Shown: positions 10 to 26,527 of the stretch, piece after piece
Layout: every line of letters starts with the position of its first letter
Numbering within the stretch: the stretch's first letter is position 1
Source: a virus
Lineage: Duplodnaviria; Caudoviricetes
IMG/VR virus record: IMGVR_UViG_3300026546_000017
Span: 1 to 26,527 of that record
Length of the DNA stretch: 26,527 bases
Direction: 5' to 3' (one strand)
Translations under genes and position numbers: made by a program
Notes under the pieces: generated by a model
Seen by the model: only the letters and a program-made list of their open reading frames with translations
Databases searched by the model: none
What the model was told of the DNA's origin: nothing

Positions 10-32
10 GAGAGCCCCATGTTGGGGTTCTC
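10..32 (+). terminator. Intergenic stem-loop GAGAGCCCC-ATGTT-GGGGTTCTC (terminator or processing-type hairpin)
   Basis: 9-bp stem with one G.U pair just after a TAA at the window start; near-identical hairpin at 1553-1574; no clear U-tract. Confidence 0.5.
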
Positions 33-56
33 TACATAATTAGCCAGAAAGGATAT

Positions 57-434
57 ATGATGGCATATTTTGATGGAGTTAAGAGACTACAAGTAGGCTC
101 TGATGGCGGACTGGACACCAATGGTGCCAAGGTAGCTGGAGAAGGATATGATATTAATGTGTACTACAATATCGAAACTGAACGTCTCGAAGAGAACAAA
201 GATGATTTTACAATGCCTGGTGCAACAGGAACAGGCAACAGTATTACTATCTTTGAGGATGGCGTAGAAGCACCTGGCGTACCAGATGAGCTAAAAAGCA
301 ATGATAATTATGTATTTACTGCACAAAACCCAGAATGGGAAGATGTAAAAACAGACACAACTGGCGATGGCGCTGCTGACACCCCAAATGACTTAATGTC
401 TAGCCTCAAAGCTAAACATATACCTGTAACATAA
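57..434 (+). CDS. Small acidic putative virion protein (paralog of next gene; possible capsid decoration protein)
   Basis: AAGGA RBS at 49-53 (start may be ATG at 60); shares MAYFD..QV.SDGG...NG.KV.G and QNP.W.DV with 445..840; lies upstream of the gp55-like gene, where N4 has the major capsid gene. Confidence 0.6.
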   Translation: MMAYFDGVKRLQVGSDGGLDTNGAKVAGEGYDINVYYNIETERLEENKDDFTMPGATGTGNSITIFEDGVEAPGVPDELKSNDNYVFTAQNPEWEDVKTDTTGDGAADTPNDLMSSLKAKHIPVT

Positions 435-444
435 AGGATAAGCA

Positions 445-840
445 ATGGCCTATTTTGATGCTTTAAGACAAGTGCAGGTAAGCTCAGATGGGGGAGTAAA
501 AGGAAATGGGGACAAAGTTATTGGAACTAGCGACACTTTGCAGTTCGCCCACAACATAGAGGCCGGAAGAATACCAGAATACAAAGATGATTTTTCGACC
601 CAAAAATTTCGTGTTCTAGATGTAGAAGAAAACTGGGACTACCATGTTAATAATGCATCCGTATTTCAAAATTGGGGGAATTACGATAGTTCCTTATTCT
701 TAGAGAACAACAACAACCATGTAAAGGTTCTTCAGAATCCAGACTGGAATGATGTAGCTTCGGAAGACAACAACGGGGATATATATACAGAGCGTCAAAT
801 GTCAAAAGTGGCAGCTGAGATATTTGGAGAATACTACTAA
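445..840 (+). CDS. Small acidic putative virion protein (paralog of 57..434)
   Basis: AAGGA RBS; same shared motifs as the previous ORF. Confidence 0.6.
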   Translation: MAYFDALRQVQVSSDGGVKGNGDKVIGTSDTLQFAHNIEAGRIPEYKDDFSTQKFRVLDVEENWDYHVNNASVFQNWGNYDSSLFLENNNNHVKVLQNPDWNDVASEDNNGDIYTERQMSKVAAEIFGEYY

Positions 841-850
841 ACCATAACAA

Positions 851-875
851 ATTGCAACCGCGTAGCGGTTGCAAT
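851..875. promoter_or_regulatory. Perfect 11-bp hairpin ATTGCAACCGC-GTA-GCGGTTGCAAT
   Basis: Perfect inverted repeat in an intergenic gap; GC-GTA-GC core. Confidence 0.55.
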
Positions 876-898
876 CCAATACAATAAAAAGGAACAGA

Positions 899-1546
899 AT
901 GACAAGAGATGAACTAAAAGAAAAGGCGACGAAACTGGATATTATGTTTCCAGAAAACATAAAAACAGAGAAGCTCAAAGGGCTTATTGCAGAAAAAGAA
1001 GCTGGACAAGAACCAGTAGAAACACCAGTAGAAGAAGACACTGAGTCTCTCAAAGAGCAAATGAGAGCTGAGATCAAGGCAGAGCTGGAAGCCGAGTTTA
1101 AGAATAAACTAAACAAGCGCATTGAAGACATCGAGATTAAGACAGTTGCATTTGGACGAAACAAAATAATCTCCCCAGCAGAAATAGCTAGACTTCAAAA
1201 AGAAGCAACGAGTCTCGTAAGAGTCAATGTGATTTGTAATGATCCCACGAAACAAGCGTGGGAAGGCGAAATCATTTCAGCAGGAAATGACGTGATTGGT
1301 GATGTTAAAAAGTATGTAAAGTTCAATACAACACAAGGATATTTCATACCAAGGATCATCTACAATGTCTTGAAAACAAAAAAAGTAACAATCTTTAAGC
1401 AGAAAAAGGGGAAAAATGGGCAGCAAACAACTACGCCAGTATTGATAAATGCGTTTAACACCGTAGAGCTTCCATTGCCAACTCCAGCGGAACTTAAAGA
1501 AATGGCAAGAGAACAAAGAGTAGCAGAACTGCAAGCAGACGCATAA
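899..1546 (+). CDS. N4 gp55-like protein with N-terminal HeH/LEM-like helix pair
   Basis: ATG 899 has an AAGGA RBS (ORF track starts at 869); EATSLVRVNVICNDPTKQAWEGEIISAGN..KKYVKFN..IPRIIYNVLK resembles N4-like gp55 as I recall it; synteny. Confidence 0.75.
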   Translation: MTRDELKEKATKLDIMFPENIKTEKLKGLIAEKEAGQEPVETPVEEDTESLKEQMRAEIKAELEAEFKNKLNKRIEDIEIKTVAFGRNKIISPAEIARLQKEATSLVRVNVICNDPTKQAWEGEIISAGNDVIGDVKKYVKFNTTQGYFIPRIIYNVLKTKKVTIFKQKKGKNGQQTTTPVLINAFNTVELPLPTPAELKEMAREQRVAELQADA

Positions 1547-1552
1547 AGATAC

Positions 1553-1574
1553 AGAGCCCCTCATGGGGGGTTCT
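1553..1574 (+). terminator. Intergenic stem-loop AGAGCCCC-TCATGG-GGGGTTCT
   Basis: Same stem as 10-32, directly after the stop at 1546. Confidence 0.5.
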
Positions 1575-2512: not shown

Positions 2513-4765
2513 ATGTCAAGCGAATACGAATTTCACTCTTATTTGACGGCGAATCAGCTTCAAAAAGAAAGAGCGCAAAAAGACAAGAAGATAGTTGAGG
2601 TTATACTCGAAAAGAGCAGAACAGGGCTTACCATCTCAGATTATATGAGAGATGATATTTTGCATGGAGTAACTCATAGCATAAATAGATTCAATAAACT
2701 TGGGAAGAAGCATGGGTTCGCTGGATACTACATGTTTGCAGACCTAACGCATGAACAAGCAATCATAAAACACTACATGGTAGTTGATGGAGCGGTTAAC
2801 GCAGCAGACTTAAAAACAATCACAGAAATGAAATTAGGACTTATCAGCCAACTACTACAATCCCTCGCACAGCTGTCTCAAGACGGGCATAGACTACAAA
2901 AAAAAGAACATGTAGAACAAAACGAAACATTCTTTGGGTACATTCAATATGATGGGCATGAATGGCACATAAAAGAATATATTGTAGATGAAATTTCTGG
3001 CAACGTTATTATCTCAATGACAAGATGGGACGGAACAAACAAGATCGAAGAAGAATATGACACTGGCCTCCCAGGCAAATCAACGCAAGAAGGCGACAAA
3101 GAAGGAGTCGCCATTGAGTACAATACAAATACCGATGAGGATACAACACAATATTTCTTTTCAGAGGACAACAAATACGCCCTTATCGGGAACACTGCAT
3201 TTGAAGAAATGGAGATTATGCCATTTGTAGCACTCAAGGATGACTACAATAATGAAGTACCATATTACAGACTCTCAAAAACAAACGCAGAAAGGGTAAG
3301 AAGAGAAAAAGTTTTAAAAGCACTGAACATTGACCTTGTTGAAACATCAGAAGGAATATTTTCCTCACACAGTATCCCAGCAATAGGGACAGGAGAATGG
3401 AATATTCAATACGGGAAATGGTATAGACAAGACCAAGACCTAAAAGATCGGTTCAGCACAGAGGAAGAATACCACGATCACTTGGTCGCACAAAACCAAA
3501 ACCAAGCACAAAACACAAGGCAAATCTCTGATGTCCACATAGGATTTGCAGCTACCCCACTATTCATCAATGAAACAAGCGCATACGCTGCTTATCAAAC
3601 ACTACTACCACTTCTGCTCAAATATGAGGGGGCAGGACCAATTAAACTAAGAGTAGGATCACTTAAACAAGAATGGACATTCAGCGGTGTAAGAATAGTT
3701 CGCAAGCAGGGGGTTCCAAAGAATATTTATGACACACCAGGGGCTCTATCAAAAAAGAAAACCAAAGCAGGGTGGTACATAAAATCATTCTCAAAGAAAA
3801 AAAACAGTAATGGTGGTTATGTTAATGATGACACATATTTTACTGAAGAAGGGATAGGCGGAGATGATGATGACCCGATCTTGGAAAACATAATTGAAGT
3901 AGGGGATGTGAACCCCCCTGATGACACACCAAGAGAAAGAAAAACAGTATTTGAAATAAGAACGATTAGCGCTCCGCTTGAATACACAGAAATTAGAATT
4001 GTTGGATGGGTAGGTACAAGCGTAACAACACAAAGACACAATCCTGATTACCCAGATGGTGGGATCAGAGCAGTGTCTTCTGTAGATTTATGTGACATAG
4101 ATGACATAGCGACATACCTTAATGGGCTAGTAATCCCTCTAACATTTGACGCGTTCAAGACTCTCCCTATTTTTAAAAGAGATCGTCTTGCAAAAGAAAC
4201 ATTGATGTTGGTAGTTCAAGGGATAGCAGTAACAGAAACCCCTTGGTACGCAACAACTCTGTTCAAGATATTTATGATTATCCTTATTGTTGTCGCTACT
4301 ATTGTTTTCGCACCAGCAGGACAAGTAGGGTTTGCACTACTTGGGCTAGGTGTAGGGCTAGCAGTATCTTACGCATTGAGCTATATAGCGAAATTAGTCA
4401 AAAGCCCATTTCTTATGGCAATGATCACCTTTGCAGTGGGGTTCATGTTGATGGGAGGAATTGTCGGGCTTGTAGACATATTGTCTCTTGCGGTTGAAGC
4501 AACAGGGACATACATGAATCAAAAAATACTTTTAACTGAAATCGAAAACAATAAAAAGACAGAAGCAGCAAATATGCACAGAAATAAAATGGCAAGGGAG
4601 CTAAAGGAACTTGAAGACAAATTTGGGTTAAATAAAGAAAGCAATACCAAGTATCTACTATACCTAGCCTCGCTGCCTCCAGTAGAACATCCGAATGACT
4701 TCTTCGGCAGGGCATTAAACACAAATCTAAATGAAATAGATATGAAATCGCAATTTGAACTATAA
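2513..4765 (+). CDS. N4 gp53-like virion/ejection protein with C-terminal transmembrane cluster
   Basis: 750 aa; PWYATTLFKIFMIILIVVATIV followed by 2-3 more hydrophobic segments; position between gp54-like and gp52-like genes. Confidence 0.7.
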   Translation: MSSEYEFHSYLTANQLQKERAQKDKKIVEVILEKSRTGLTISDYMRDDILHGVTHSINRFNKLGKKHGFAGYYMFADLTHEQAIIKHYMVVDGAVNAADLKTITEMKLGLISQLLQSLAQLSQDGHRLQKKEHVEQNETFFGYIQYDGHEWHIKEYIVDEISGNVIISMTRWDGTNKIEEEYDTGLPGKSTQEGDKEGVAIEYNTNTDEDTTQYFFSEDNKYALIGNTAFEEMEIMPFVALKDDYNNEVPYYRLSKTNAERVRREKVLKALNIDLVETSEGIFSSHSIPAIGTGEWNIQYGKWYRQDQDLKDRFSTEEEYHDHLVAQNQNQAQNTRQISDVHIGFAATPLFINETSAYAAYQTLLPLLLKYEGAGPIKLRVGSLKQEWTFSGVRIVRKQGVPKNIYDTPGALSKKKTKAGWYIKSFSKKKNSNGGYVNDDTYFTEEGIGGDDDDPILENIIEVGDVNPPDDTPRERKTVFEIRTISAPLEYTEIRIVGWVGTSVTTQRHNPDYPDGGIRAVSSVDLCDIDDIATYLNGLVIPLTFDAFKTLPIFKRDRLAKETLMLVVQGIAVTETPWYATTLFKIFMIILIVVATIVFAPAGQVGFALLGLGVGLAVSYALSYIAKLVKSPFLMAMITFAVGFMLMGGIVGLVDILSLAVEATGTYMNQKILLTEIENNKKTEAANMHRNKMARELKELEDKFGLNKESNTKYLLYLASLPPVEHPNDFFGRALNTNLNEIDMKSQFEL

Positions 4766-4781: not shown

Positions 4782-5612
4782 ATGAAATACAAAAACTCTC
4801 CATTTACAGCAGCAACTCAAAACAGCAGCTTCATAAAAGGGCAAACAAAATGTTGCCAGCCAAGGGTTAAAACAAGTGCAGAACTTGCTCTTACAGGGGA
4901 AACTCCAAAGGTAACATCAAAGCTCACATCAAAAACAAGTATTACCCCTAAAACAAAAACATCAAACAATATAACAAAAATTGCTACTGATAATTGGGCA
5001 CAAACAGCAGGACTAATTATCCAAGGGGTATCAACCCTTGCAAACGTGTATTTGGGGTTCAAGCAACTAGCCGTCGCAAACAAACAAGGAGCAGCAGCGT
5101 CCTCAAATGATAGGAACAATACATGGCTTGCAAAAGAGAAAATACGAAGCTATAAAAATAGACTTGCTGCACAAGCGCAGTACCAGATGCACAACCAGTC
5201 AATTGAAAGTGAAGCCCAGCTCAAGAGCCTATACAATTCCTCTGGTGGGCTGAATGCCCAAGGGCAAACCGTAGATTGGTCCCCAGACCTTACTTACTAT
5301 GATTGGAATAAGGGTGGGACGGCAGGTTTCAAGGAACAAGGAAGAAATGAAGCAGCATATAATGCATATCAAAATGAATTAAAGAAAGTTAACGGGGGGC
5401 AACAATCAGCCTTTGCCCCAACACAGACACCAAATAAAAAACTTGCAACCAGTACCCAAAGTGCAATGGGTACAAATGCAATTGGCGGCCCAGATACCCA
5501 ATCTCAAATTGTAACAAAACCTGGAGCAGTAGTAAGAAAAAAATCCTTGGGAGCTGAGCCTACAATAGAAAAAGAGATTAAAGACAAGAAAAGTCAATTG
5601 GCTATTGCCTAA
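4782..5612 (+). CDS. N4 gp52-like ejection protein
   Basis: ATG 4782 has a GAGGA RBS (ORF track starts at 4755); WAQTAGLIIQGVSTLANVYLGFKQLAVANKQ amphipathic motif; synteny. Confidence 0.65.
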   Translation: MKYKNSPFTAATQNSSFIKGQTKCCQPRVKTSAELALTGETPKVTSKLTSKTSITPKTKTSNNITKIATDNWAQTAGLIIQGVSTLANVYLGFKQLAVANKQGAAASSNDRNNTWLAKEKIRSYKNRLAAQAQYQMHNQSIESEAQLKSLYNSSGGLNAQGQTVDWSPDLTYYDWNKGGTAGFKEQGRNEAAYNAYQNELKKVNGGQQSAFAPTQTPNKKLATSTQSAMGTNAIGGPDTQSQIVTKPGAVVRKKSLGAEPTIEKEIKDKKSQLAIA

Positions 5613-5624: not shown

Positions 5625-7190
5625 ATGGGATCAACATATAAAAGTAAATTAGAAAACGTAGGCTATATACCACAAACAAGTTATGAAGGGGTGAACGCAG
5701 CAACAAGAAATGCTGTAGCACTATTCAACAAAGCATCAGACAACGCCATGAGAATGGGACAAAACCTGGTTAAAATGGGGGAAGACAGAGCTGCTGACGC
5801 AAGGAGGATGGCACTACAAAAAGAAAGAGAGGCCGCAGCAAAAAGATTGCAAAAAGGCAGAGGAGGAGGAGGAGGCGGAGGCAAAAAGAAAGCAGAACCC
5901 GTTTCTGATGCAGACTTTATCGAAGCAATGGCGAAAAGGTTGGGCGCAGCAAAACCACCAGTTGTTATAATGAACCCAACAAAAAAAGAACTAGAGGTCC
6001 CTTTAAACAACCGTCTTACAGAAGAAATGTATGATAATGTCCCATATAACGAAAACAAAGACAAGACAACACAAGCGACAAGAGATGCAGAAGCAATAAT
6101 TGGGACAACTAAAAATGCAGAACCCCCAGTTACAGACAAGTTTACACCATTCTTACCAAAACAAGAAGAAGACACACAACAAGAACAAAAGCCTCAACTA
6201 GCCGACAAGTTTACTCCATCCCAAGAAAAGCAAGCTGCACCACAAAACACTTTTAATAATCAGCAGGAATATGATATTACCAAGGGAAGAGATACATCAC
6301 ACCCATTAAGCAACTATCTCAAAAAGCGTGAAGAAGAATTTAGAACTGAATTTGGTGACGGTAGCCCAGAAACTATAAAGAAAAAAATACAAGAAGAAGC
6401 CAATAAAAACGGGCAAGTTGTATTTTTCGTCAACAATGAAAAAGAAAGAAAAATAGTAACTGCAACAGCGAAGAAAGATTACTTTAGAAACAAAAAAGAT
6501 CAAGATATTCTTAGGGTCACGGCAGCATATAGAAAACTATTTGGAATAAAAAAATCTATTCCAAAATCAGTTCTTAATGCGTTAACATCAAAAACACAAG
6601 CACAATATGAAGCCGCGAAAGAAGAAGAAAAAAGAATACTATCGTGGGCAAAAAACGACGAAACAGAGACGAAAACTTTAGCAAGAACCAGAGCAGATGA
6701 AACACAAAAAGCAATAAGGTCGCTTAACGCTGCCGACGCAGCAAAAAAAGGTAAATGTGGGGAAATTACAGATCCAGTTACAAGACTAGAATGCGTCCAA
6801 AAAAGCGAAAAATTAGCGGAAAAAGAAAACAAAAAAGAAAACAAAAAAAGCTTCAAATCTAAACTAGTAACAAGCAAAATACTTCAAGACTATATAGGTC
6901 CATTGATGTATGATAGCGGACCAATGAAAGACTGGAGTGGTAAAACAAAAGACCTATATAACACTTTAGCGCCATTACTGATTGGGAAATCAACTACAAC
7001 AATGAGAAAAGCAATAGGCAAACTAAATTTCTCCAAGCCAGCAATTGCGGGGACATCAACTGTTAACGGGAACGCTTGGTGGTTCTCGAATGACGATTTA
7101 GACGAAATGAAAACAAAAGTAGGGAATTACATCAAAGACAGTAAAGCTGACTATAAAAATAAAATGGCAGCCAAAGCGAATAAAAAATAA
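5625..7190 (+). CDS. Putative gp51-position ejection/internal virion protein
   Basis: AAGGA RBS; 521 aa, helical, K/E/A-rich, poly-Gly linker; directly upstream of the vRNAP locus; assigned mostly by synteny. Confidence 0.5.
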   Translation: MGSTYKSKLENVGYIPQTSYEGVNAATRNAVALFNKASDNAMRMGQNLVKMGEDRAADARRMALQKEREAAAKRLQKGRGGGGGGGKKKAEPVSDADFIEAMAKRLGAAKPPVVIMNPTKKELEVPLNNRLTEEMYDNVPYNENKDKTTQATRDAEAIIGTTKNAEPPVTDKFTPFLPKQEEDTQQEQKPQLADKFTPSQEKQAAPQNTFNNQQEYDITKGRDTSHPLSNYLKKREEEFRTEFGDGSPETIKKKIQEEANKNGQVVFFVNNEKERKIVTATAKKDYFRNKKDQDILRVTAAYRKLFGIKKSIPKSVLNALTSKTQAQYEAAKEEEKRILSWAKNDETETKTLARTRADETQKAIRSLNAADAAKKGKCGEITDPVTRLECVQKSEKLAEKENKKENKKSFKSKLVTSKILQDYIGPLMYDSGPMKDWSGKTKDLYNTLAPLLIGKSTTTMRKAIGKLNFSKPAIAGTSTVNGNAWWFSNDDLDEMKTKVGNYIKDSKADYKNKMAAKANKK

Positions 7191-7200: not shown

Positions 7201-10200
7201 ATGCCATATTCTTCAGTAGAAATCGCAAGTAAAATTTTAGGGGCAGAAAACCCAGGATCAAGAATAGCATCGGAAGATTCAAATGACATTGGGACAACAA
7301 TGCAGAAAGAAGATGCTGTCATAGCAAGAGAAAAAGAGAAAGTACAAAAAATATATGGGAACCAACCTGTAACGTTCTCAACAGAAGAAGAAGTCGCAAA
7401 AGAAGAACAATCAGATCAAGGGTGGCAAACAGGAACAGTATATTCTATTATTGATGGAGACGGAATCTTCATCAAGGAAATGGAAGGGCAGGAACTACGA
7501 GCAGCAGGATATGATGCATCAGAAGTAGAACACCCAGGGGAAGACCACACTGAAAGAGAACAAAGAAATGCAAGAAGACTTGCAGAGTTGTGGGGGGTTC
7601 CAGAAGATTCTGTAACAACAGAAGATGTATATGAACAAGGGTGGAAAGACACAACAAAATTAGCATTTGAACTCACCAAGACAAATATAAATGAAAAACT
7701 TAAATTAGGGGACACATCCTACTACCGAACACATCCACCAGTGTACAATAATCTCAACATCCCAATACAATATAAAATCATAGACAAGGGGGTATACGGA
7801 CGACCAATCGTAATCATGAAGAACCCCGTCACTGGTGAAATTGTAAACCAGAGCTTTGACCTTCCTGGATACAGGATGGGGTTCAAGGATGCTGCAAAAA
7901 AAGCAGGGATGAAAACCTCAGACTATGTTGAGCCATTCCTCGCACCAAGTCCTGGTGCATACGGATCAGAAAAAAAATATGCGTATAAGCCTAAAAACTG
8001 GGACACAATGACCAATGTCCAAAGACGGGCATGGAACGAAAGATCTAAAAAATCACAGAACTATAATCAAGGGGCGTTTGAGCATGCCTTTAAATCATTT
8101 GCCGGAACAGCAGGGGCATTACTTGCTGGGGCAGGAGATGGCCTACTTGATTATGCCTCATCAATTTCTGATGAAGCTCTGGGAACTACATTTGGGAATA
8201 GTACGCTGTTTGAGGATTTTAAAAATGAAGATATATGGCAAAGAGCCATAGGCTATAATGACATAGAAGAAAAGAAAAATATAGCAGCAGTTGATCAATA
8301 CATAAAAAATGGGGACTATGGGAAAGCAGCGTTGCACTTCGTATCAAACGCAAAAGTCGTTGCTCCGCAAATGCTGGGATATTTAGTCCCAATTCTTGCG
8401 TCCATGCCTGTTGCCGCGACAGTATGGTCTTTCGACTTACTGTCAGACCAAAAAGATGCATACAAAAAAGCAACAAACAAAGATATGACCCTTGGGGAGC
8501 AAACAGGGGCCCTGTCTCTAAACTATGTGACATCATACCTTGAAGCAATAGTTGGAGGGAAAATCCTAGGCAAAGGGGGATGGGGCGTAGTAGGAAAACA
8601 AATGAAAAAACTCTTTAAGCCATTTACAAAAATGGTTGCTCCGCTCGAAAACAAAGCAGCATCAAAAGGGTTTGCAGAAGCAGCAAAATTAGCTGCTAAA
8701 AAAATCAATCCACAAACGCTAACTGGCCGAATAATAAAAAGAGTAGCGGACGCTCCTGTGGCAAAACTTAGTGCTGATGTAGTAATGGAGATTATTCAAG
8801 AAGAAACTGAAAACATTCACCAAGAATATTGGGCAAAAGGGGGAGACACAAAATATGACTCAATTGGTAAATATATTTCAGAAGTAGCAAAAGGTCATGT
8901 AATATCAAAAGACCAAGCAATAAGCACAGCAGTCCAAGCAGGAGTTGGGCACTTGATGATGAGACCCAAGGCTGTTGCAGTAGATGCAGCACGCATATCA
9001 GGGGTCCCATTCAAAATGGTAGGGAACCATTTTGATAGGAGGGAAGCAGCAAACCTTACAAGAGAAGATGCTGCTGCACTTCAAGTAGACAGAGCAGCGC
9101 AAGAAAAAGCAGCAAACGCAGGACACGCTGGAACAATGAAGACCCTTGAAGCACTAGATACTGCTCAAACAAAACAAGATCTCATCGATAGTGGTATCAG
9201 CTCTGATATATTGCAAAAGGTCAAAATAACAAACGGGGAAGAAATATACCAAAAACATACTGACTTGGCAGAAAATGCAGTAAAAACAACCATTGATCTT
9301 GTTAATAACTTTAGTGAAGACGGGAAAAGTGGGAGAGATAAAATTGCAACAGACAATCAAGTTAGAACAATCCTTGAAGCTTCTGGCGTTGAAACCAAAG
9401 GGAAAACAAAAGAAGAGCTCATAGATGATATTGGAGTAATGACTAATGAGCAAAAAGGCCGTTTGCTTGCAATAGTTGATTCTCAAGGTACAAACAAAGT
9501 CGGGGGTTCCTTAAATGGAATTGCAGCAGACATAAAGGTAGATACAGCACAGCAAGCAGCGCATATATCAAGAGCATACATAGCACAAGCAGCAGCCCTT
9601 AGAAAAAAATATGTACGCAACAAGAAAAAAACATCAAATGAGAATAGTTACTTTGTAAGACGAAGACAAAAAAAAGTTGATGCAGACAAGCTATTTCATA
9701 ACCTACCAAAACTAATCAACAAGGCAATATCAAAAGGGAAAACCAACTTTAGTTTTATGGACGACTTTTCAACTAAGTCTCTCATCAAAGCAAGACAAGA
9801 TTTTGCAGGGAACAAAGATGTTGTAGCAAGCATAGATACTGTGCTGAAATCAAGAAAAACAACTTTTAAAGAAAGAGCAGGCAAAGCAGATTCTCTCATC
9901 AACGAGGATGGGCTAGTCGGGATAACTGGGGAAAAAGCAAAAGACATTCGGACAATCAATGACGCTATTAACCAACACCCCACAGATGCCTTCACTATAG
10001 CAACGATTGGTGACAGTATTGACTCTCTTGCCGAAGCAAAAGTTATATCTAAAGCACAACAAAAAATACTTCATCAAAGACTTGAATCCGTTAGTGACAC
10101 TAGCTCATTGGTTTCAAAATTCAAAGAAGAACCCCCCACTTACTGGGTGGGGCAACTAAAGGCGCTTAAACAACAAGAAATTGATCTCAGAAAAAAACTG

Positions 10201-14000: not shown

Positions 14001-17000
14001 AGACAAGGCTCAATGAACAAAAAGAGTCATTAGAGTTAATCCAAAAAAATAAGAAATTCAAGAAAGGGAAGTTCGCTGATTATTTCACAGACAGCAAAAT
14101 AGATGCCACCCAGCTTCAAGAACATGACTTCGGTACTGAGCAGGCTGATACAGGCACTCCAGCACGGCTAAAAGAGCAATCTCCTGATGTGGAAATGTCC
14201 AAGCTGGAGGAAGCAGTCAGAAGCGGGAAAGACGCATATATAGACCTTGAATTTTCATTTGATGAGAACCCCGAGAATGGGCAGAAAGAAATATATCAAA
14301 TTGCAGCAATCAATAGTAAGGGAGAAGAGTTCGTCAGAAACTTCTACCCAACTGGGGAGATGGCTACAAAATACTCAAAGGCGGTAGAAGGAAAAGAATA
14401 CCTATCGTTGGAGGAACTAAAAAGTGCAGAAGGCGCAAAGCCATATTCACGGGAAGCAGTAAATCAGGCACTTGAGGAGCTTGATGGGCACCTTGGTGAA
14501 GACTCACTAACAGCCTATGCGGGGTTCTATGCAGACTTCAAGCATATAGACAATTACGAGAACGGGAGAAAACTCCTCTCGTCAAGAGAGCTGATTGATG
14601 CGCACAAAGCAGCACTACATAAGCTCGGGATGGTAGACAATCCAAAAGGATCTACTCAAGGAGAAATAGCCAATAAGCTTGGAGTAGAGCAAGGCACTGA
14701 TAGCAGAACACATGAAGCGATGTCTGACACAAAAACACTGAAAGAGCTATCAGGGAGATTAGCAAAAAATGACACAAGGGGATCAGTATCAGCAATACTA
14801 AATGAACTAGGAAAAACCAATGAATTTCTCGGCGACATAGTAAACGAGATTGATTATGATGCACAAGAAAATTCATTTGATCCAAGAACCAGAACACTAA
14901 GCTTCAAAAAAGGAGCAAATAGAGAAGCAGTAGGACATGAAATCACACACGCAATAACATTGGACTATATTGCTTCAAAAAAAGGACAACAATCAAAAGA
15001 ATATAAAAAGATAAAACAAGCATACAAATTTATAAAAAACAATATACAATTTTTAAAATCCAAATTTGCAAATAACCCAGAAATCTTATCAGCATTAGAA
15101 CATATAGCAAATGATAAAGAGAATGTGGGGATTGCAGAGTTTGTTGCCCTTGGGGCAACAAACACCACATTCAGACAAGGCTTAAAATCTGGGTCTATAA
15201 TTAAAACAATCAAAGACTTCCTCAAAGTCGCAATCAATAAACTGCTTGGAAGACAAAAAGATATGAGAGTTACCAATATGGTAGCAGAAAACATGGGGCA
15301 AGATCTCGTAAAAACTATAGATAAAATCATAAGAGATTCTGTTGACTTCCAAGACGAAATAAGCTCTGGATCACAAAAGAAAAAACAACAAACACGAGGC
15401 AGAACAGCAACAGAGTTTACCGAAAAACTAGGCATGCCAAAACAAAAGTCCAAGCCAAAGCAAACAACTAAGGAAGTTAGAACCATCCTTGAGGAGCTTG
15501 ACTGGAAACCATTTGATGATTCAGCTACTTCCGCCAATGGAATAGGCACCCCTGTACTTAAAAGCCTTGAAGGAATCAATGATTACACTAGAGCGATCCT
15601 AATCGAATCGATAATTGAGAACCCCTCTGTAATTAAAGCCGCCAAGAAACTTGGGGAAAAAATAGATGAGAAATTGTCCAAATATCCAATCTACGCTGAT
15701 AACAAAAACAGGGCTACTGACCTATGGGAACATGCACCATTATTACAGAAGATGAAAACCTATCTTGCCCCAGAGAGAAGCGGTGATGCCTACACGCTGA
15801 ACAAACTACAGACATCAATTGCCAACGCAGAAAAGCATGCAAGACAAATAGAATCAGCCCAGATCAAGCAGATCAATGACCTAACAAAGGGTCTCTCAAA
15901 AGAAGCACAAGAAGGAGTCTTCCACGCTACAACAACCGTACCATTCTTCCATTTATTGAATGATAAAGGTGGAATCGTAAACGAACTTTTACGTTCAAAC
16001 AATCTCAAGGCAGATATAGAAACGAAGATCGCTGAACTAATAAAAGAAAGCCAAATACCAAAAGCGCATCTTCAGCAGATTAGCGAATTGGCACAATTGC
16101 TTGCTCGTAAAAAGCAACCAAAGGTTGCACGAGGAAGTAAAACGATTCCAGTATACAACCTACACTCAATCGGCTTTAGCGAACACACACTCCCCTATGC
16201 CCAAAAGATATTAACACTGCAAACAATGCTCGCAGAACCAAAAGCTATTGAGGGGTTCAAAGAGCTACAAAAGAATCCAGAATTGTTTAAAACAATGGCA
16301 GCTGTTTCTGCTGCGCTAAAAACAGCACATGACAGGGTAATGGTCAATGACGCAAACAAAAGAATGTATAAAGAAAATCTTGTTAAAGAACTTCTAAATG
16401 AACCAGTAGAAATGCACGCAATCACTAAAGAAGATTTGGCGAATGGGCAATTTTCAGAATTGAATGGTTGGAGAATTGTCAGACAACCAACTACTGGGTA
16501 TGGTATCGCAGTTCGCAATGCAAAAGACATAACAAACCAACCAGGGCTTGGCACAACGTTATCATATAACTTCGCAGATATTACTGTACCAAAAGACAAG
16601 TTCATCAAAGCAGATAACTATGTAACTGTTTATGACAGAAAAGGGCAACCAAGGAGAAAGCTTATTTTGACGCAAGAAGAGATTGATAGCATAGGAGAAA
16701 TCAGAACCCCATCAGATGCAATTGTACGAACATACTCGCAAATCGCTGCACTAGAGGAAACTGAATCAGCCAGAAAAGCGTTAATGTCTGCACAATTCAA
16801 CAAAAGGCTATCAACAAGAAAAGAAGAACGTCAATTCGCCGAAGCGTTAAAAGACATGAGAATCGAAGAAGTTCCTTGGGCAGTATCATTCGATTCAAAA
16901 AAAGATGCAATTAAATGGCTTGCACAGAACAAAGAAGCAAGATACAAATACGCTCTTGTGGACAACATGACGCAGTTTAATAATGCAAATGAAAAGATAC

Positions 17001-18154: not shown

Positions 18155-18502
18155 AAACGGCGATACATTGAGAAGAGTATTTGATTTTTCAGGATCGAAT
18201 CTCGTCTCAACACTGCCATTATTTTTAAGAATGTACAGAAATTCAGCACCAACCTTGCTATTGTGATGGAGAACCCCCCATCCAGTTGTCTTGGACTTGT
18301 CCAAGCCGAACTTCTCACCATCCCTCTCTGAAGAGCGAAGCAACTGTGCAAACTCGTACTCTGGATCAATGCCTCGTGCCTCAAGAAATTTTCTATGAAA
18401 TTCAATCAGCCATGGTAGAGTAGCATCAGGATAGCCGTCCCAATGCTTATAGATCTTGGCGTATTCAACGCCTTCAACTTCAATTACACACCTTGTAGCC
18501 AT
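18110..18502 (-). CDS. Conserved phage hypothetical protein (M.TR..I / IY.HWDGYP family)
   Basis: AAGGA RBS; IYKHWDGYP motif common in small phage proteins; 3' end overlaps the vRNAP 3' end by 45 bp. Confidence 0.7.
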   Translation of the reverse strand: MATRCVIEVEGVEYAKIYKHWDGYPDATLPWLIEFHRKFLEARGIDPEYEFAQLLRSSERDGEKFGLDKSKTTGWGVLHHNSKVGAEFLYILKNNGSVETRFDPEKSNTLLNVSPFLSGDEIEDMGREEG

Positions 18503-19084: not shown

Positions 19085-19120
19085 GAACCCCCATGCACAA
19101 TAACATTGTGGTAGGGGTTC
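19085..19120. promoter_or_regulatory. Intergenic long hairpin GAACCCC..CACAAT-AAC-ATTGTG..GGGGTTC
   Basis: Outer 7-bp and inner 6-bp perfect stems within a 64-bp intergenic gap. Confidence 0.5.
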
Positions 19121-19309: not shown

Positions 19310-19741
19310 TTATGCAAATGGCTCATCAGCGAAAGAAGCAATCACTTCGATCATTGTCTCAGCAATAGCTCTTTCACTATTAATAATTGCTGGGAGCAAT
19401 ATCACTACAACTTGATCATCGTCAACAAGGTATCCTTTTCTAACGAAGAGATCTTGGACCCATTTGTTTGTAAAGCCAAAAGCATCAGCATCAATCTTCC
19501 GCTTACTATCACGATGAATGCGATACGAAATTTGACCATACTTGTATGGGGGTTCTGTTGACTCGGCAATATGCCATGATTCTAGTGTCTCAATTAGCTC
19601 ATTTTTAATTGCAGTACGATTATACCTTAACCAGTATTGAACATTGTTCATTGTGGCGAGATGCCCCTTCCGTTTGCCAGAAGGGATCTTTGGTGGTGGG
19701 AAAATAAAGCTTATGGTTTCACCCCTGTGGGGGTTCTCCAT
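19310..19741 (-). CDS. RusA-like Holliday junction resolvase
   Basis: RKIDADAF...KWVQDLF..KGYLVDDDQV matches the RusA D.DN..K...D.L...G...DD pattern; start overlaps the upstream stop (TAATG). Confidence 0.7.
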   Translation of the reverse strand: MENPHRGETISFIFPPPKIPSGKRKGHLATMNNVQYWLRYNRTAIKNELIETLESWHIAESTEPPYKYGQISYRIHRDSKRKIDADAFGFTNKWVQDLFVRKGYLVDDDQVVVILLPAIINSERAIAETMIEVIASFADEPFA

Positions 19742-20352
19742 TACCAGCCTTTGGGTACTTCAGGAGCAGCGCCAGCAGCAGGGGCAGGAGCTTTGTTAGG
19801 CAAACGCTTAATAGGATTCCGTGCAAGGAAAGAGGCTACTTTATCAGAAATATCCTCTCCATTGTCACCCGCTCCGTCTGGTGTCATCCAGTGAGAAACC
19901 ATATTACGGATAGAGGTTGTACCATTGTAGAAGTTCTCATACTGGCGAATCCCAACAAGGACTTTTATCCCGATTGTTTCTTTCAGAATAAATGCGTCAA
20001 TGGTGTTATCCTTGAATTTGACCTTTCCCTCTTCACCGTTAATTGCTTCGTTACCGGTAGTGACACGCTCATAGCGAATCAACTCTTGAAGACCAGGGAG
20101 CAAAAATGCTTTACCATTTTTAGTGAAAGTAGCTGACCCTGTTCTGCTTTTTACAGCAGTTGAGTAGAACAATGAGCGATCTTCCTTTGGAAGGTAAAGC
20201 GCAACTTCCCACATGGAAGCACCATTTTCCGTCTTGCGGATAAAAGAGTTTTTGATCTCGGCAGCATAAACGCCAGAGTTGATTGGACCGTCAGAAATAT
20301 TCTGTGCGGTAACTTCTTTAGCCAGATTGGCATCTACATCAAATGTAGCCAT
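19741..20352 (-). CDS. N4 gp45-like single-stranded DNA-binding protein
   Basis: SGVYAAEIKNSFIRKTENGA and F.KNGKAFLLPG blocks; flexible Ala/Pro C-tail; N4-like position convergent on vRNAP. Confidence 0.7.
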   Translation of the reverse strand: MATFDVDANLAKEVTAQNISDGPINSGVYAAEIKNSFIRKTENGASMWEVALYLPKEDRSLFYSTAVKSRTGSATFTKNGKAFLLPGLQELIRYERVTTGNEAINGEEGKVKFKDNTIDAFILKETIGIKVLVGIRQYENFYNGTTSIRNMVSHWMTPDGAGDNGEDISDKVASFLARNPIKRLPNKAPAPAAGAAPEVPKGW

Positions 20353-20392: not shown

Positions 20393-20467
20393 TGGTTGGC
20401 AGGGAGGGAATTGAACCCCCATTGTATCGGTTATGAGCCGACTGCATTACCATTATGCTACCTGCCA
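20393..20467 (-). tRNA. tRNA with CAT anticodon (Met or Ile2), CCA encoded
   Basis: Acceptor stem TGGCAGG/CCTGCCA plus A-CCA; D arm GCAT/ATGC; anticodon arm GTCGG-CTCATAA-CCGAT; T loop GGTTCAATTCC. Confidence 0.93.
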
Positions 20468-20512: not shown

Positions 20513-20953
20513 CTATCTTGTACCGGTGCTCCCTAGCCCCCCTGTACGTTTAGCGTTACTGCCATAATTGAATACGGCTGAATCATGCGTCATTAGAATA
20601 GCTTGCCCAATTCGATCTCCTTTCCGAATATGATATTTGTCTGGGCCGCTATTATTTGTAATTATCATTTTGATCTCATCTGGGTAGTCCATGTCAATAA
20701 TACCTACTCCATTGGCCAATATTAAACCAGAAACGGCCAAAGAACTACGAATCGAAAGTTGAATATATCGAGTATGCATAAATTGTTCTGAAGCTAAATC
20801 TTTAATAGCATAGTTGTCAATAACAATACCTAGGCCAACAATCTTAGTTTGCCCACGAGGAATATCAACATCTGCATTTGCGTACAGATCAACTGCCGCT
20901 GAATACTTTGTTCCTCGTGTTGGCATAATGCCTCCATAAACTGTTTTAAACAT
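20513..20953 (-). CDS. dut: Trimeric dUTPase
   Basis: All five motifs: AAVDL, RSSLA, GVGIIDMDYPDEI, GDRIGQ, RTGGLGSTG. Confidence 0.95.
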   Translation of the reverse strand: MFKTVYGGIMPTRGTKYSAAVDLYANADVDIPRGQTKIVGLGIVIDNYAIKDLASEQFMHTRYIQLSIRSSLAVSGLILANGVGIIDMDYPDEIKMIITNNSGPDKYHIRKGDRIGQAILMTHDSAVFNYGSNAKRTGGLGSTGTR

Positions 20954-21273
20954 TAATTTAACTCCTTACAAAGTTTAGTTGCTTGTTCCCATGTTAAATT
21001 TTCATGGGTTACATCAGACCACTCAAGACCATAGCTTTTATCCCTAACACAACGAGCACAATTTGTTCTGTCTTTTTCCCCATAATAGATGCTCCCATTA
21101 TAGAAAAACATATACCATGCATTCTGTTTATGGAAAGAATATGTCGTTGAACTCCAATAGAAATCAGCAGAGAACCCCCCTATCTTGGACTTGCCAAGTT
21201 CACGGTTAAAGTTACTGCTCATTTCATCAATTGTAGGCAACCTCCATTCATCTATCTTGATTAAACTCATCAT
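20953..21273 (-). CDS. DUF1566/Lcl-type (C-type lectin fold) protein, circularly permuted
   Basis: WRLPTIDEM, YWSSTT, NAWYMFFYNG, ARCVR, then GLEW..LTWEQATKLCKELN. Confidence 0.8.
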   Translation of the reverse strand: MMSLIKIDEWRLPTIDEMSSNFNRELGKSKIGGFSADFYWSSTTYSFHKQNAWYMFFYNGSIYYGEKDRTNCARCVRDKSYGLEWSDVTHENLTWEQATKLCKELN

Positions 21274-21853: not shown

Positions 21854-22162
21854 TTAAACGTTTTTTAATATCGATAGAATCTTGGTATGCCACCCGATAA
21901 GTTCATCGGGGATTTCCTTGTTGAGATAGTCCCATGTCCATCCATTGGGGGTTCTTTTGTACCTAATTAACCTGCCTTTTGTTGCATCTGCATATACCAC
22001 ATCAGCAGTAACTTGTGCGAACCAGGGCTCAGGAGCAGCATCTTCAATCTTCGTTTTAATTTTAACAAACTCTAGCTCAAGCGCCGCTTGGCATTGCAGA
22101 TACTCATGCTCAATTTTTTCCTTTAAAAGCGAAAGCTTTTCAATTTGTGTTTGCTTCGTCAT
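21854..22162 (-). CDS. Hypothetical protein
   Basis: AAGGA RBS inside the upstream gene; fits the operon. Confidence 0.65.
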   Translation of the reverse strand: MTKQTQIEKLSLLKEKIEHEYLQCQAALELEFVKIKTKIEDAAPEPWFAQVTADVVYADATKGRLIRYKRTPNGWTWDYLNKEIPDELIGWHTKILSILKNV

Positions 22163-22816: not shown

Positions 22817-23290
22817 TTATATTTCGTTTGCACCAAACATTGCCCCATCATGGGAGACAATAATTGCATCAGCAATAATACTCCCTTCTGGGATAACAAT
22901 ATCATTGGGGCTCAAATTGTGCAAAGGTAGGTACAAGTTGCCAATACTATTCAGCGGGATGGCAATGAACCCCCCTGCAACAGCGATTCCAAGCTCTCCA
23001 ATAGCGGGCTTAACAATAAACGTTAGAAAACGAGAACGGACAAAATCATTAACAAAATCATTTTTACGTTTGTTATAATGAAACGATTCATAATCATATT
23101 TGGTAACAACCAGGTCTATCAATTTGTCATAATTAATCTTGATACCAAGATCAACTTTAACAATCTCTTGTGACTCTATCGTATAGTTCTCTACCGCGAA
23201 CACATTAACCCCAGGAGAATAAGGGCTGCTTCGGAATGGAGTAAATTTACAATCAGCTGCCTGTAAAATCATCACGAACCCCCACTTCAT
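22817..23290 (-). CDS. Degenerate dUTPase-fold protein lacking the catalytic motifs
   Basis: Colinear with dut (P.RSSPYSPGVNVFA, VKVDLGIKIN, LHNLSP..IVIPEGSIIADAIIVSHDGAMF) but no RSS, IDxDY or RGGFGSTG; start could be 23272. Confidence 0.65.
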   Translation of the reverse strand: MKWGFVMILQAADCKFTPFRSSPYSPGVNVFAVENYTIESQEIVKVDLGIKINYDKLIDLVVTKYDYESFHYNKRKNDFVNDFVRSRFLTFIVKPAIGELGIAVAGGFIAIPLNSIGNLYLPLHNLSPNDIVIPEGSIIADAIIVSHDGAMFGANEI

Positions 23291-23756
23291 CTACATACAA
23301 ATCAAATGCTGCAATAATCTCCCTGTCGCATGATCCATGAATAAACTTTCGGAGATTCCTCTGAAGTTTTAAAACCTCGGTGTAATATGCTTCCATAGCC
23401 TGGTAATGCTCTGCCTCAGCAGACTCCTCTGGCCCAACTGTGCTCAGGTCATATATTTTATCAAACATGTTTTCTTTCTCCTTTTTAGACACATCTGCTT
23501 TCTCGATAATTAAGCGAATAAGCGCAGCAGCCTGGATAGCATACTGCTCCTTCGTTTCATTAGACGACTCAGGAGACGTAAAGAGATAATAACTTGATTT
23601 AAAATCATCTATTATAACAGTAGGGTCGTTATCAAACAGTATTCTATGGAACGAATCACTGGATGCCTCATAATTTTTCAAATTAAGATGAAGATCTCTC
23701 AGCGAAATAGTGTTAATTTCCTGGAACTGGCGAATGCACTTCTCTACTTCATTCAT
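23253..23756 (-). CDS. Hypothetical helical protein
   Basis: ATG 23756 has a GAGGAG RBS (ORF track starts at 23771). Confidence 0.65.
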   Translation of the reverse strand: MNEVEKCIRQFQEINTISLRDLHLNLKNYEASSDSFHRILFDNDPTVIIDDFKSSYYLFTSPESSNETKEQYAIQAAALIRLIIEKADVSKKEKENMFDKIYDLSTVGPEESAEAEHYQAMEAYYTEVLKLQRNLRKFIHGSCDREIIAAFDLYVDEVGVRDDFTGS

Positions 23757-24453
23757 TATCGTACTCCTCAATTAATTCAATAACACGCTTGATACCACCT
23801 TCTTCAAGAAACGGCTCAGGATAAAAATCCTCTGGTGTTTTCACACTAAGGTTTTTACTGTCCTTTGTCTTTGACAATTGAAGTCGATACTTTAAACCAG
23901 TAAGACTTTCTTCATCATCGTCGTTTGTAATATTGGTATAAATAACAAACTGGAAGAAGGACTCAACGCCAACATTCTTTGTAGACCCTTTTACAAATGC
24001 CTTGATGGGGATTTGATTATTTTCAAGATCACCTTCTACAGTATGAGAAAGAAAGATCCACGTCTTCTTTGATGTGCTGGTAGCAAAATCAAGCAACTCA
24101 AACAAGGCTTGTTGATAGACTTTACCCCAAGCTCCTCTGCTGTCATCAGAGTTGACAACATATTTTTGCTCAAGCTTACGAAGCCAATGAGATAGGGTAT
24201 CAACAACAATGTACTCACTAACAGGATCATCTTCGAGCAACTGGAGGTTATTGACCAAGGTCAAGGGATCAGTGGGAACAATCCAATCATGAATTTTGTT
24301 TTTTCCACGGAAAGGTAAAGCATTTTTACCATCAATGTCAATAAAGGTGATTTTATCACCTTCAGCCATTACCAGCTCTTTCAAAGAGAACGTTTTCCCA
24401 GTTCCACTTCCTCCAAGAACAAGTAGTGTTTTTTTGTTAGTCGTAACAGACAT
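23749..24453 (-). CDS. AAA/RecA-like ATPase (N4 gp44-like, AAA_24/Sak4-like)
   Basis: Walker A GGSGTGKT, Walker B YIVVDTLS, IFLSH; ATG 24453 has an AAGGA RBS. Confidence 0.82.
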   Translation of the reverse strand: MSVTTNKKTLLVLGGSGTGKTFSLKELVMAEGDKITFIDIDGKNALPFRGKNKIHDWIVPTDPLTLVNNLQLLEDDPVSEYIVVDTLSHWLRKLEQKYVVNSDDSRGAWGKVYQQALFELLDFATSTSKKTWIFLSHTVEGDLENNQIPIKAFVKGSTKNVGVESFFQFVIYTNITNDDDEESLTGLKYRLQLSKTKDSKNLSVKTPEDFYPEPFLEEGGIKRVIELIEEYDNE

Positions 24454-24665
24454 GTGAATCCTTTTTTTTGTTTTTACTGTCAGTGTGCATATTAACACAC
24501 ATTTGCAAAAATAGTAATAAATTTCATAAAAAAATATACTATTCTTGCAAATACATGATAAATACTAACAATCATAAAATAAACATATATAAAATATATT
24601 TTTATAGTTCTTTTGAATAAGTTTTAATATGATATTATGTGGAATTACTACAAAAAGCAGAACAC
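24454..24665. promoter_or_regulatory. AT-rich divergent control region with a 16-bp inverted repeat and a possible extended -10 (TGATATTAT, 24630-24638, +)
   Basis: Strand switch; ATTTGCAAAAATAGTA (24501-24516) versus TACTATTCTTGCAAAT (24537-24552), 15/16 match. Confidence 0.5.
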
Positions 24666-25139
24666 ATGATAAATATAATTGATAAAATACTATGTACGAT
24701 CAAAGGCTACGGAACAATGATGCTAGGGATGTTTGCGGGGGTTCTCACCTATGCGGACATAGACAAAGACGTTTTTAAACTATATACATTATTCTTATTC
24801 ATGGATGTTGGAACAGGCCTATATAAGGCATATAATTTAGATGTAAAAATAGAATCATCAAAAATGATCGAACGAGTTTCTGCAAAAATTATCACACTAT
24901 TTATCCCAGTTCTTATCGGAGTTGCTGTCAAGATGATGGAAGGAGATTGGCACTTCTTCTATACATACTCTATGAACCTACTGATAGTGGCCGAAGTCTA
25001 TAGTATCATCGGGAATGCATACTCTGGAGCAACCAAACAGGATATTCCTGAGTGGGATGCAGTAACAGATATAACCAAGTTCATAAGAAATTTAGTTTTT
25101 AAGAAACAGGGGGGATCAGGTGGAATGGATAACAAATAA
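24639..25139 (+). CDS. Holin (phage holin family 4-like)
   Basis: Several TM segments; MDVGTGLYKA..IESSKM...V..K and AEVYSIIGNA motifs; first gene of the lysis cassette; start may be ATG 24666. Confidence 0.8.
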   Translation: MELLQKAEHMINIIDKILCTIKGYGTMMLGMFAGVLTYADIDKDVFKLYTLFLFMDVGTGLYKAYNLDVKIESSKMIERVSAKIITLFIPVLIGVAVKMMEGDWHFFYTYSMNLLIVAEVYSIIGNAYSGATKQDIPEWDAVTDITKFIRNLVFKKQGGSGGMDNK

Positions 25140-25386
25140 AATTAAAGCTTACATCCAGTGGGGATGGATAGCCATCTCAACTATCATTGGGGGGTTCTTG
25201 TTTATAAGGAACGTCCAACTTAAACGCAGTAATAAAAATCTTCAAAAAGAAAATAACAACCTACATTTAAAAAACAAAACCACCAAAACACAAACTCATA
25301 TTGATGACAAATACACAGAGGCACAAGCCACATACAAATTAGAGCCTATGGAGAACCCCAATGAAATCGTTACTATTGACGCTTAG
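25120..25386 (+). CDS. Putative inner-membrane spanin (Rz-like)
   Basis: Single N-terminal TM helix followed by a coiled coil; within the lysis cassette. Confidence 0.6.
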   Translation: MEWITNKIKAYIQWGWIAISTIIGGFLFIRNVQLKRSNKNLQKENNNLHLKNKTTKTQTHIDDKYTEAQATYKLEPMENPNEIVTIDA

Positions 25387-25597
25387 TATATTATTTTTAG
25401 ATGGATGTGTCCCAAGACAGAGATATATTGGCATAAGGCAATATACTCTAGCGGTTCTACCAATTGAGAAGAATCTCAAAGTAGAAAAACGAGGTGCAAT
25501 ACTAATTAAAAATCTACGAAAACAAAATGAGTTTTATAGATACCAAGTATTGCAAAATAACGATTTTTTAAAGGAAACAAATGCCACACACTTCTAA
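25361..25597 (+). CDS. Putative outer-membrane lipoprotein spanin (Rz1-like)
   Basis: Lipoprotein signal MKSLLLTLSILFLDG-C; overlaps the end of the i-spanin candidate. Confidence 0.6.
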   Translation: MKSLLLTLSILFLDGCVPRQRYIGIRQYTLAVLPIEKNLKVEKRGAILIKNLRKQNEFYRYQVLQNNDFLKETNATHF

Positions 25598-26396
25598 GAC
25601 AAAACTCCCATTGATTTACTTGCAAAAAATTCTACAGGCAAAAGGACTATACTTAGGCAAAATTGATGGACAGTATGGCCCAATAACAAGAAAGGCAATT
25701 ATTTCTCTCCAAAAAATACTACATGGGTACAACGTATTTTGGTCAAAGTACACAGGAACATACGATGAAAGAACAATGGAGGCTGTTGCACGGTGGCAAC
25801 AGCTACATCCGCCTTTGGTGCCAGACGGCATTATAGGGCCAAAAACAATGGAAGCACTAATCCCTTCGCATATCGCAGACAGGGAAGACCCTAAAAAAAG
25901 CCGCAATACCTATCGATCACACGCAACAGGCAAGCACTACCCCCATGAATCAAGAGTGCGGGAATACTATGGTCCACCAGGGAGAAACCAAACAAAAATT
26001 TTACTACCATACGATGTAAAGATTGCATGGGATACTGATAGAAAAATTAACCGAATCACATGTCATAAACTCATTGCCGAAGATCTTCAAGGAATTTATG
26101 AAGCAACGCTGGAGGAATATAGCCTTGATGGCATTCAACAGCTAGGGCTAGACCTATGGGGCGGGGTTCTCAATGTAAGAAAAATACGAGGTGGAACACG
26201 CTACTCTATGCACGCATATGGGATAGCAGAAGATATTGACCCAGCACACAATCAGCTTAGATGGCATGCACCTAAAGCTAAATTATCTGGGCTTGAATAT
26301 CAACGATATTGGGAAATATGCGAATATCATGGAGCGTACTCTCTAGGCAGAAAAAGAAATTATGACTGGATGCACAAACAATGGGCGCATAGATAA
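25581..26396 (+). CDS. Modular endolysin: peptidoglycan-binding repeats plus M15-family (L-Ala-D-Glu-type) peptidase
   Basis: IDGQYGPITRKAI and PDGIIGPKT PG-binding motifs; SMHAYGIAEDID and DWMH zinc motifs. Confidence 0.88.
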   Translation: MPHTSKTKLPLIYLQKILQAKGLYLGKIDGQYGPITRKAIISLQKILHGYNVFWSKYTGTYDERTMEAVARWQQLHPPLVPDGIIGPKTMEALIPSHIADREDPKKSRNTYRSHATGKHYPHESRVREYYGPPGRNQTKILLPYDVKIAWDTDRKINRITCHKLIAEDLQGIYEATLEEYSLDGIQQLGLDLWGGVLNVRKIRGGTRYSMHAYGIAEDIDPAHNQLRWHAPKAKLSGLEYQRYWEICEYHGAYSLGRKRNYDWMHKQWAHR

Positions 26397-26527
26397 ATTA
26401 ACGATCCACATAAATTTCAGCACGAGGGAATTGTCTACATGCAGTAAGGTATGTAGACGCTACATCTAAAAGGTCATCAAAAGAACCCCAATTATTTTTA
26501 GGAGAATACTTGAGAAGCCCCTCTTTG

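Follow-up and report, generated by a model that had tools for sequence, protein, structure and literature searches.

The stretch of DNA analyzed here (IMG/VR record IMGVR_UViG_3300026546_000017, positions 1 to 26,527; referred to as the window, 26,527 nt in length) carries an N4-like gene set together with many dispersed copies of the heptamer GGGGTTC, the subject of this study. The genes include those for an N4 gp55-like protein (869..1546, + strand), a gp54-like protein, a virion RNA polymerase (vRNAP) of 2364 amino acids (aa) that is an N4-like marker (11060..18154, +; phrog_2206, E 1.7e-30), an N4 gp45-like single-stranded DNA-binding protein (SSB; 19741..20352, -; phrog_743), a Sak4-like gp44 (23749..24498, -; phrog_124), a dUTPase, a holin and an endolysin. 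These genes identify the window as a fragment of an N4-like phage. The sequences G001 and G004 represent a close relative, which shares about 80-90% nucleotide identity with the window in aligned blocks. With the Schitoviridae core-gene list in the accessible part of PMC7650795 as the criterion, vRNAP, gp42, gp43, gp44, gp54, capsid, portal and terminase genes were found across the window, G001, G004 and the sister genome G002 combined, the terminase being seen in the sister genomes only. As neither the DNA polymerase gp39 nor RNAP1 gp15 was detected in the complete G002 genome (78.7 kb), we describe the clade as N4-like and do not claim its membership in the Schitoviridae.

Taken with its complement GAACCCC, GGGGTTC is the top heptamer of the window, with 37 copies against 2.96 expected under an order-2 Markov model, a density of 1.39 per kb; 22 copies are on the + strand and 15 on the - strand. 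The original prediction, made from the letters of the window, had placed 22 GGGGTTC and 15 GAACCCC, and in a recount all of these positions were exact and none had been missed. Copies occupy all six strand and frame classes, in keeping with its claim of both orientations and several reading frames, and GGGGTTA, GGGGTTT and GGGGTTG are as rare as it had noted (2, 2 and 1 copies). Genes contain 31 of the 37 copies, giving 32 coding counts since one site falls within a gene overlap. Permuting synonymous codons yielded a mean of 3.5 coding counts (maximum 9 in 1000 shuffles), and holding the next base as well yielded a mean of 4.0 (maximum 10 in 1000). The enrichment, whose disappearance under coding-preserving shuffles had been proposed as the sign that no such signal exists, therefore stays. 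The encoded proteins permit GGGGTTC at 62 places, and the word is present at 32. The 21 one-mismatch words have 0-6 copies each, near shuffle expectation, GGGGCTC being slightly raised (4 vs 0.9); hence all seven positions of the word matter. The flanks show a preceding G in 22 of the 37 copies and a following T in 21, and the extended form GGGGGTTCT occurs 11 times.

The coding copies are spread over most of the window. The gene for a 750-aa protein has three, at 3710..3716 (+) and 3910..3916 (-), both kept in the close relative, and at 4438..4444 (+), absent from it. Two further coding copies follow at 5054..5060 (+; kept) and 6120..6126 (-; absent). Within the gene for a 1276-aa protein, the copies at 7594..7600 (+), 7821..7827 (-) and 7878..7884 (+) are kept, while those at 9503..9509 (+) and 10129..10135 (-) are absent from the relative. 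The vRNAP gene holds ten: 11143..11149, 11519..11525, 12124..12130, 14521..14527, 16252..16258, 17462..17468 and 17921..17927 on the + strand and 14266..14272 and 15619..15625 on the - strand are kept, and 16704..16710 (-) is absent. Beyond it lie a kept coding copy at 18271..18277 (-) and two copies in a RusA-like gene, one kept (19549..19555, +) and one shifted by one base in the relative (19730..19736, +). The remaining coding copies are at 21172..21178 (-) in an Lcl_C-domain gene, 21948..21954 (+), 22967..22973 (-; slid in the relative), 23276..23282 (-; in the overlap of two genes and absent from the relative), 24738..24744 (+) in the holin gene, 25191..25197 (+) and 25353..25359 (-) in the spanin-like gene, and 26163..26169 (+) in the endolysin gene, these last four all kept.

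Five of the six non-coding copies can also be accounted for by a local feature. The copy at 24..30 (+) is the 3' arm of an intergenic hairpin and that at 1567..1573 (+) the 3' arm of a terminator-like hairpin; the copies at 19085..19091 (-) and 19114..19120 (+) are the left and right arms of a predicted long hairpin; and that at 20413..20419 (-) lies in the T-arm of a tRNA-Met (20393-20467, -), where it may be incidental. The sixth, at 26483..26489 (-), is beyond the endolysin gene in DNA with no stable hairpin. The four hairpin copies and the one at 26483..26489 are kept in the close relative. The long hairpin (19077-19127, -20.7 kcal/mol), whose outer stem is formed by its two GGGGTTC copies, is upstream of a leftward gene and conserved in the close relative, and is possibly a terminator, promoter or origin element.

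The close relative is itself rich in the word, with 58 copies in the 39.9 kb of G001 and 12 in the 13.2 kb of G004. Because these include copies in regions beyond those covered by the window, the signal is genome-wide. Of 29 distinct coding sites of the window compared in 21 orthologous genes, 21 recur unchanged in the relative, one has slid, six are lost and one is unaligned; the relative has nine additional sites of its own. Silent third positions within GGGGTTC are conserved in 59 of 64 cases, compared to 4345 of 5938 (73%) elsewhere (P 3e-4).

The word could in principle lack a function and have arisen through codon bias, a mutational bias toward G runs or hairpins. The window is indeed rich in G runs, which accumulate across its genes, GGG making up 38% of Gly codons compared to 21% in G001 and 10% in G002, and the five non-coding copies in hairpins or the tRNA also suit that explanation. 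Among orthologous codon differences, 65 are GGG-to-GGA and 22 the reverse. However, shuffles that keep codon usage give only 3.5-4 coding counts vs 32, G001 is still more enriched in spite of its lower GGG use (50 vs 4), one-mismatch words are near background and silent sites are conserved. The shuffles, the enrichment in G001 and the silent-site conservation refute a by-product origin, which we regard as extremely improbable.

Copies are also evenly placed along each strand. Mean same-strand gaps in the window are 1245 and 1612 nt, and the coefficient of variation (CV) of per-strand spacing is 0.60 vs 0.92 for uniform placement (P 0.0016). Permuting strand labels gave P 0.041 for the window and P 0.006 for G001, which share homologous DNA and are not independent samples, and a random draw from protein-permitted sites gave P 0.015. 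Control hexamers reached P<=0.05 in 2 of 62 and 1 of 120 cases. Spacing is more even within a strand than over the two strands taken together. Such placement suggests a directional signal required roughly every 1-2 kb along each strand. GGGGTTC is a real, selected, directional DNA signal acting strand by strand, and the suggestion in the original prediction that a signal at the DNA level lies over the coding sequence is borne out by the shuffles, the spacing and the silent sites.

A word of this kind is not confined to the window. By the same shuffle test, the top word in nine of ten cultured N4-like genomes is of TGGTTC, TTGGTT, TGGCTT or TGGATA type, irrespective of host, with 201 copies of TGGTTC vs 71 expected in phage N4, and EcP1 is one further cultured N4-like genome with a related word. 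In a scan of 98 sequences (after removal of two duplicate loci and of anything shorter than 4 kb) with a list of 16 words compiled after the data had been inspected, 54 other sequences are 15 kb or longer, and 45 of these carry a related word at p<1e-4. The N4-family words TGGTTC, TTGGTT and TGGCTT and the GGGGTTC of the window have in common a GGTTC(T) 3' core, their presence on both strands, a late-strand bias and their location within genes; they differ on the 5' side, where GGGG stands in place of (N)TGG, and GGGGTTC is longer, stricter and sparser than the word of N4 (1.4 vs 3.1 per kb). The strand bias is mild, at 95:42 in G002 and 130:90 in N4 in favor of the late-gene strand, and the 22:15 ratio in the window is not significant.

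GGGGTTC is enriched in only two of the 98 sequences, the window and G001; outside that set, two whole genomes have a slight excess (9 vs 1.8 in G028 and 6 vs 0.8 in G026). TGGTTC is at background in the GGGGTTC lineage (14 vs 11, in the window, and 20 vs 18). In a quick tree of primase domains, with sequences under 7 kb left out, G001 nests among TGGTTC users, the node joining it to its sisters having a support of 83. Given that nesting, GGGGTTC likely is a derived state that replaced TGGTTC in the lineage of the window and G001. Other lineages have switched words too, to TGGTAC (G020, 190 vs 55), TGGATC (G029 and G026), TGGCTC (L285) and CTAGTT (AD45-P2). Neither the family-wide word nor the GGGGTTC switch was found in the literature searched, which omits most subscription papers; what appears new here, as read from the genomes, is the switch to a strict GGGGTTC with loss of TGGTTC in one lineage.

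Chi sites, read by RecBCD or AddAB, and DNA uptake sequences are likewise over-represented asymmetric 7-8-mers placed in coding DNA by silent changes. The phage may accordingly have copied a host signal, whether an AddAB/RecBCD Chi, an uptake sequence or a methylation or phosphorothioate target or decoy. A lineage-specific switch to GGGGTTC is what a host shift might produce, and the sole, weak hint at the host group comes from the binning of a related contig with a Sulfurovaceae genome; look-ups of the endolysin, the Lcl_C protein, the holin and cluster names were uninformative on this point. Chi and uptake sequences, however, are words of the host chromosome, whereas the top word is of the same TGGTTC type in phages of Escherichia, Pseudomonas, Salmonella, Acinetobacter, Rhizobium, Roseobacter and Vibrio. 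N4 holds just six E. coli Chi octamers, counted with the Chi sequence as generally known. In 61 Campylobacterota genomes, GGGGTTC occurs at <=0.10 per kb, compared to 1.39 in the window, and falls below its reversed control in 59. As the word type ignores host taxon and GGGGTTC is scarce in these genomes, the mimicry of a host Chi or uptake sequence that the original prediction had raised is not supported, with the reservation that the host is only hinted at. Dnd phosphorothioate modification targets GAAC/GTTC, and a methylation target had been suggested as well; NNGTTC words other than GGGTTC are at expectation (180 vs 174), which speaks against a modification target at that tetramer. We consider a host signal decidedly improbable.

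Which phage protein could read the word was approached through gene content, gene absences resting on six-frame hidden Markov model (HMM) searches. Three complete 45-kb genomes with terminal repeats (G031-G033) have no detectable vRNAP, RNAPII subunits (RNAP1/2), gp39, gp46 or gp55, and contain TGGTTCT at 129/22, 101/22 and 54/17 observed/expected. AD45-P2 has no gp44 (Sak4), a divergent gp43 and the divergent word CTAGTT (158/71). The gp55 protein, which the original prediction had put forward as a binder, went undetected in six of the 17 genomes examined for it, and each of these six bears a related word, so the word family does not require it; nor does its idea of a role in injection, taken as acting through vRNAP, fit the strong words of the three vRNAP-less genomes. 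vRNAP promoters, RNAPII sites and Sak4 as a reader were rejected, since the word persists in genomes lacking these genes. The persistence of related words without vRNAP, RNAPII, gp39, gp55 or Sak4 narrows the candidate readers to gp42, gp43, gp45 (the SSB encoded in the window), the terminase and a few virion proteins.

Among these, gp43 stands out in two respects. None of three phages without a full-length gp43 shows such a word, and in a Mantel-type comparison of 27 genomes holding all core genes, word distance follows that of gp43 more closely than that of any other among ten core gene parts (rho 0.20, partial 0.15), with gp42 second (partial 0.11) and terminase, portal and capsid negative. 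These results bear also on a packaging or virion signal, in which the word would mark pause or cut sites of the terminase (gp68/gp69) or binding sites of a DNA-coating virion protein such as gp55. Every word-bearing genome checked encodes both gp68 and gp69, and the weak late-strand bias would suit packaging. Yet the negative partial correlations of terminase, portal and capsid, together with the six word-bearing genomes lacking a detectable gp55, argue otherwise, as does MW202426, one of those three phages without a full-length gp43, which has a distant N4-type capsid, portal and terminase and neither gp43 nor the word. A duplex binder, moreover, would have no need of copies spaced more evenly within a strand than over the two together. 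We regard a packaging or virion role as quite unlikely.

The gp43 gene of G001 (L104:7826-9907) encodes a 694-aa protein (phrog_2135). Its model (pLDDT 90) has an MCM-like ATPase in the N-terminal part and an AEP domain in the C-terminal part, with helices after the latter. Taken alone, the AEP domain has its best matches in the S-2L PrimPol (E 3.6e-6) and RepB' (E 2.8e-5), 6zp9 and 3h20 being the fold hits, and its catalytic acidic and His motifs (D494/D496/H521/D567) are conserved; a phage of the GGGGTTC lineage accordingly encodes an AEP primase with intact catalytic motifs. The C-terminal helices were modeled at residues 603-693, and PF08708 is among the precomputed domain assignments of 5 of 83 homologues. 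No significant structural match specific to the helix bundle was found, and searching the gp43 sequence against solved structures gave nothing useful.

We propose that GGGGTTC is probably a single-strand recognition site at which the phage gp43 helicase-primase starts primers. A phage primase, here the likeliest reader, was not named in the original prediction, whose specific candidates mostly found no support. In this scheme, the helicase of gp43 would unwind the DNA and expose a single-strand template, its AEP/PriCT half would bind 5'-GGGGTTC-3' on that template, and a primer would be laid about once per Okazaki-sized interval. Both strands would carry sites because each would serve as lagging template. 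The word is asymmetric, and its same-strand gaps and CV in the window correspond to per-strand action at Okazaki-scale spacing. In the lineage of the window, a changed gp43 specificity would have driven the loss of TGGTTC and the gain of GGGGTTC, mostly via silent changes.

Primases with comparable habits are known. According to the accessible part of PMC8718748, helix-bundle AEP primases read short template words, pRN1 ORF904 reading 5'-GTG-3' and the PrimPol of phage NrS-1 reading 5'-TTTGGTTA-3' and 5'-GTG-3'. Like GGGGTTC, these words are short, asymmetric and G/T-rich, and gp43 as modeled likewise joins to a helicase an AEP domain with a predicted C-terminal helical stretch of putative PriCT type. 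In gp43, unlike in those primases, the helicase is N-terminal and MCM-like. Dispersed sites are found in phage T7, whose primase is of the DnaG type and has TGGTC and GTGTC among its pentamers. Its gp4 primase has a 5'-GTC-3' core and prefers G/T flanks, as given in the accessible part of PMC6136900. T7 sites and GGGGTTC are alike in being dispersed and G/T-rich with a fixed 3' core ending in C. In a T7 control, restricted to one strand, two of three pentamers are enriched over synonymous shuffles (observed/shuffle: TGGTC 71/51, GTGTC 33/23 and GGGTC 31/28). The accessible text of PMC4889955, PMC4496689 and PMC7650795 contains no N4 primase site, and no published gp43 recognition site was found in the literature searched, older work on N4 replication lying outside it.

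Several observations weigh against priming by gp43. Wherever they were looked for in word-bearing genomes, gp42, gp45, the terminase proteins gp68/gp69, gp54, the portal and the capsid were found too. The correlation of gp43 with the word is weak (0.15 vs 0.11 for gp42), carries no significance figure and comes from a set that does not include G001. Vibrio phage 1.026 has an intact-looking gp43 yet no such word, and 9 of the 54 long sequences have no related word. Even per-strand spacing is not universal, with P values of 0.77 in G002, 0.71 in LIT1, 0.27 in RHEph16, 0.16 in G029 and 0.87-0.94 in AD45-P2. The gp43 gene is outside the window, being about 1.6 kb beyond the endolysin gene in G001, and only 3 of 48 conserved primase-domain columns differ in the GGGGTTC lineage (positions 420, 457 and 580), with none differing in the predicted helix bundle. 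The known systems also differ in degree: TTTGGTTA occurs once in the NrS-1 genome while copies of GGGGTTC, exact over seven bases, are scattered over both strands at 1.4 per kb, and the enrichment in T7 is about 1.4-fold on a single strand, compared to 8-13-fold on both strands for GGGGTTC. We infer priming from sequence and a structural model.

The main rival, a phage-encoded Chi-like signal read by gp42/gp45, predicts a largely identical sequence pattern, which further tempers the case for gp43. On this view the word would make the gp42 exonuclease, acting with the gp45 SSB or with a helicase, pause or hand over, so that phage DNA would be protected and recombination-dependent replication steered. 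No word-bearing genome checked lacks gp42 or gp45, gp42 ranks next after gp43 in tracking the word, and the directionality, mild late-gene-strand bias and per-strand spacing would suit a resection stop just as well. However, gp42 has only a weak PD-(D/E)XK/Cas4-like match, and we know of no sequence-specific stop for an exonuclease of that class. The direct precedent for word reading lies instead with the AEP primases (accessible part of PMC8718748). On balance a Chi-like role for the word is unlikely. Were it true, these phages would encode their own Chi system. No phage-encoded Chi system is known to us from earlier descriptions.

Several further features of these phages were observed alongside the word. 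The N4 gp39-type DNA polymerase was not found in a large N4-like clade (G002, G001, G003 and G020-G039), whose members may rely on the polymerase of the host or on gp43 acting as a PrimPol. The complete 45-kb phages G031, G032 and G033, with N4-type capsid, portal, terminase and gp42-45 and neither vRNAP nor RNAPII, carry genes of 1859-2964 aa of unassigned nature and form a reduced N4-related group. In the window, the gene for the 1276-aa protein (7201-11031) precedes the 2364-aa vRNAP gene in place of a single 3500-aa vRNAP; a two-gene arrangement of similar size is described for AltAD45 phages in the accessible part of PMC3821669, and no homology of the 1276-aa protein to vRNAP was detected. 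The Lcl_C (DUF1566)-domain genes at 20953-21273 and 22140-22802 are tandem-variable copies in a region that is rearranged in the close relative. Three conserved genes lie by the exonuclease gene at L104:13731-17602 in G001 (399/488/470 aa) and L108:7739-12250 in G002 (372/530/603 aa); the first has weak ThiF-like matches only, and an Atlas search gave no usable match for the second. Coding DNA of the window fully avoids certain palindromes (observed/expected: CTGCAG 0/15, GAATTC 0/14, GATATC 0/11, CTTAAG 0/9, TTCGAA 0/8), unlike the sisters G002 and G003, in which CTGCAG is enriched; this contrast suggests different host restriction systems.

More broadly, it is possible, though we put this forward tentatively, that N4-like phages fix their priming starts in coding DNA as an evenly spaced grid on each strand for an MCM-AEP helicase-primase, and that a polymerase-less lineage switched the specificity of this enzyme and rewrote its genome from TGGTTC to a strict GGGGTTC, a case of enzyme and site co-evolution. 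If the priming proposal is true, the specificity of gp43 in N4 and its relatives would be predictable from genomes alone, and N4, with TGGTTC, would offer a direct laboratory test. A primase with a strict 7-base site would be a useful tool enzyme, and the GGGGTTC lineage, along with the users of TGGTAC, TGGATC, TGGCTC and CTAGTT, would be natural specificity switches for mapping how AEP primases read DNA. The word is also a hidden constraint on silent sites, relevant to the recoding of N4-like phages.

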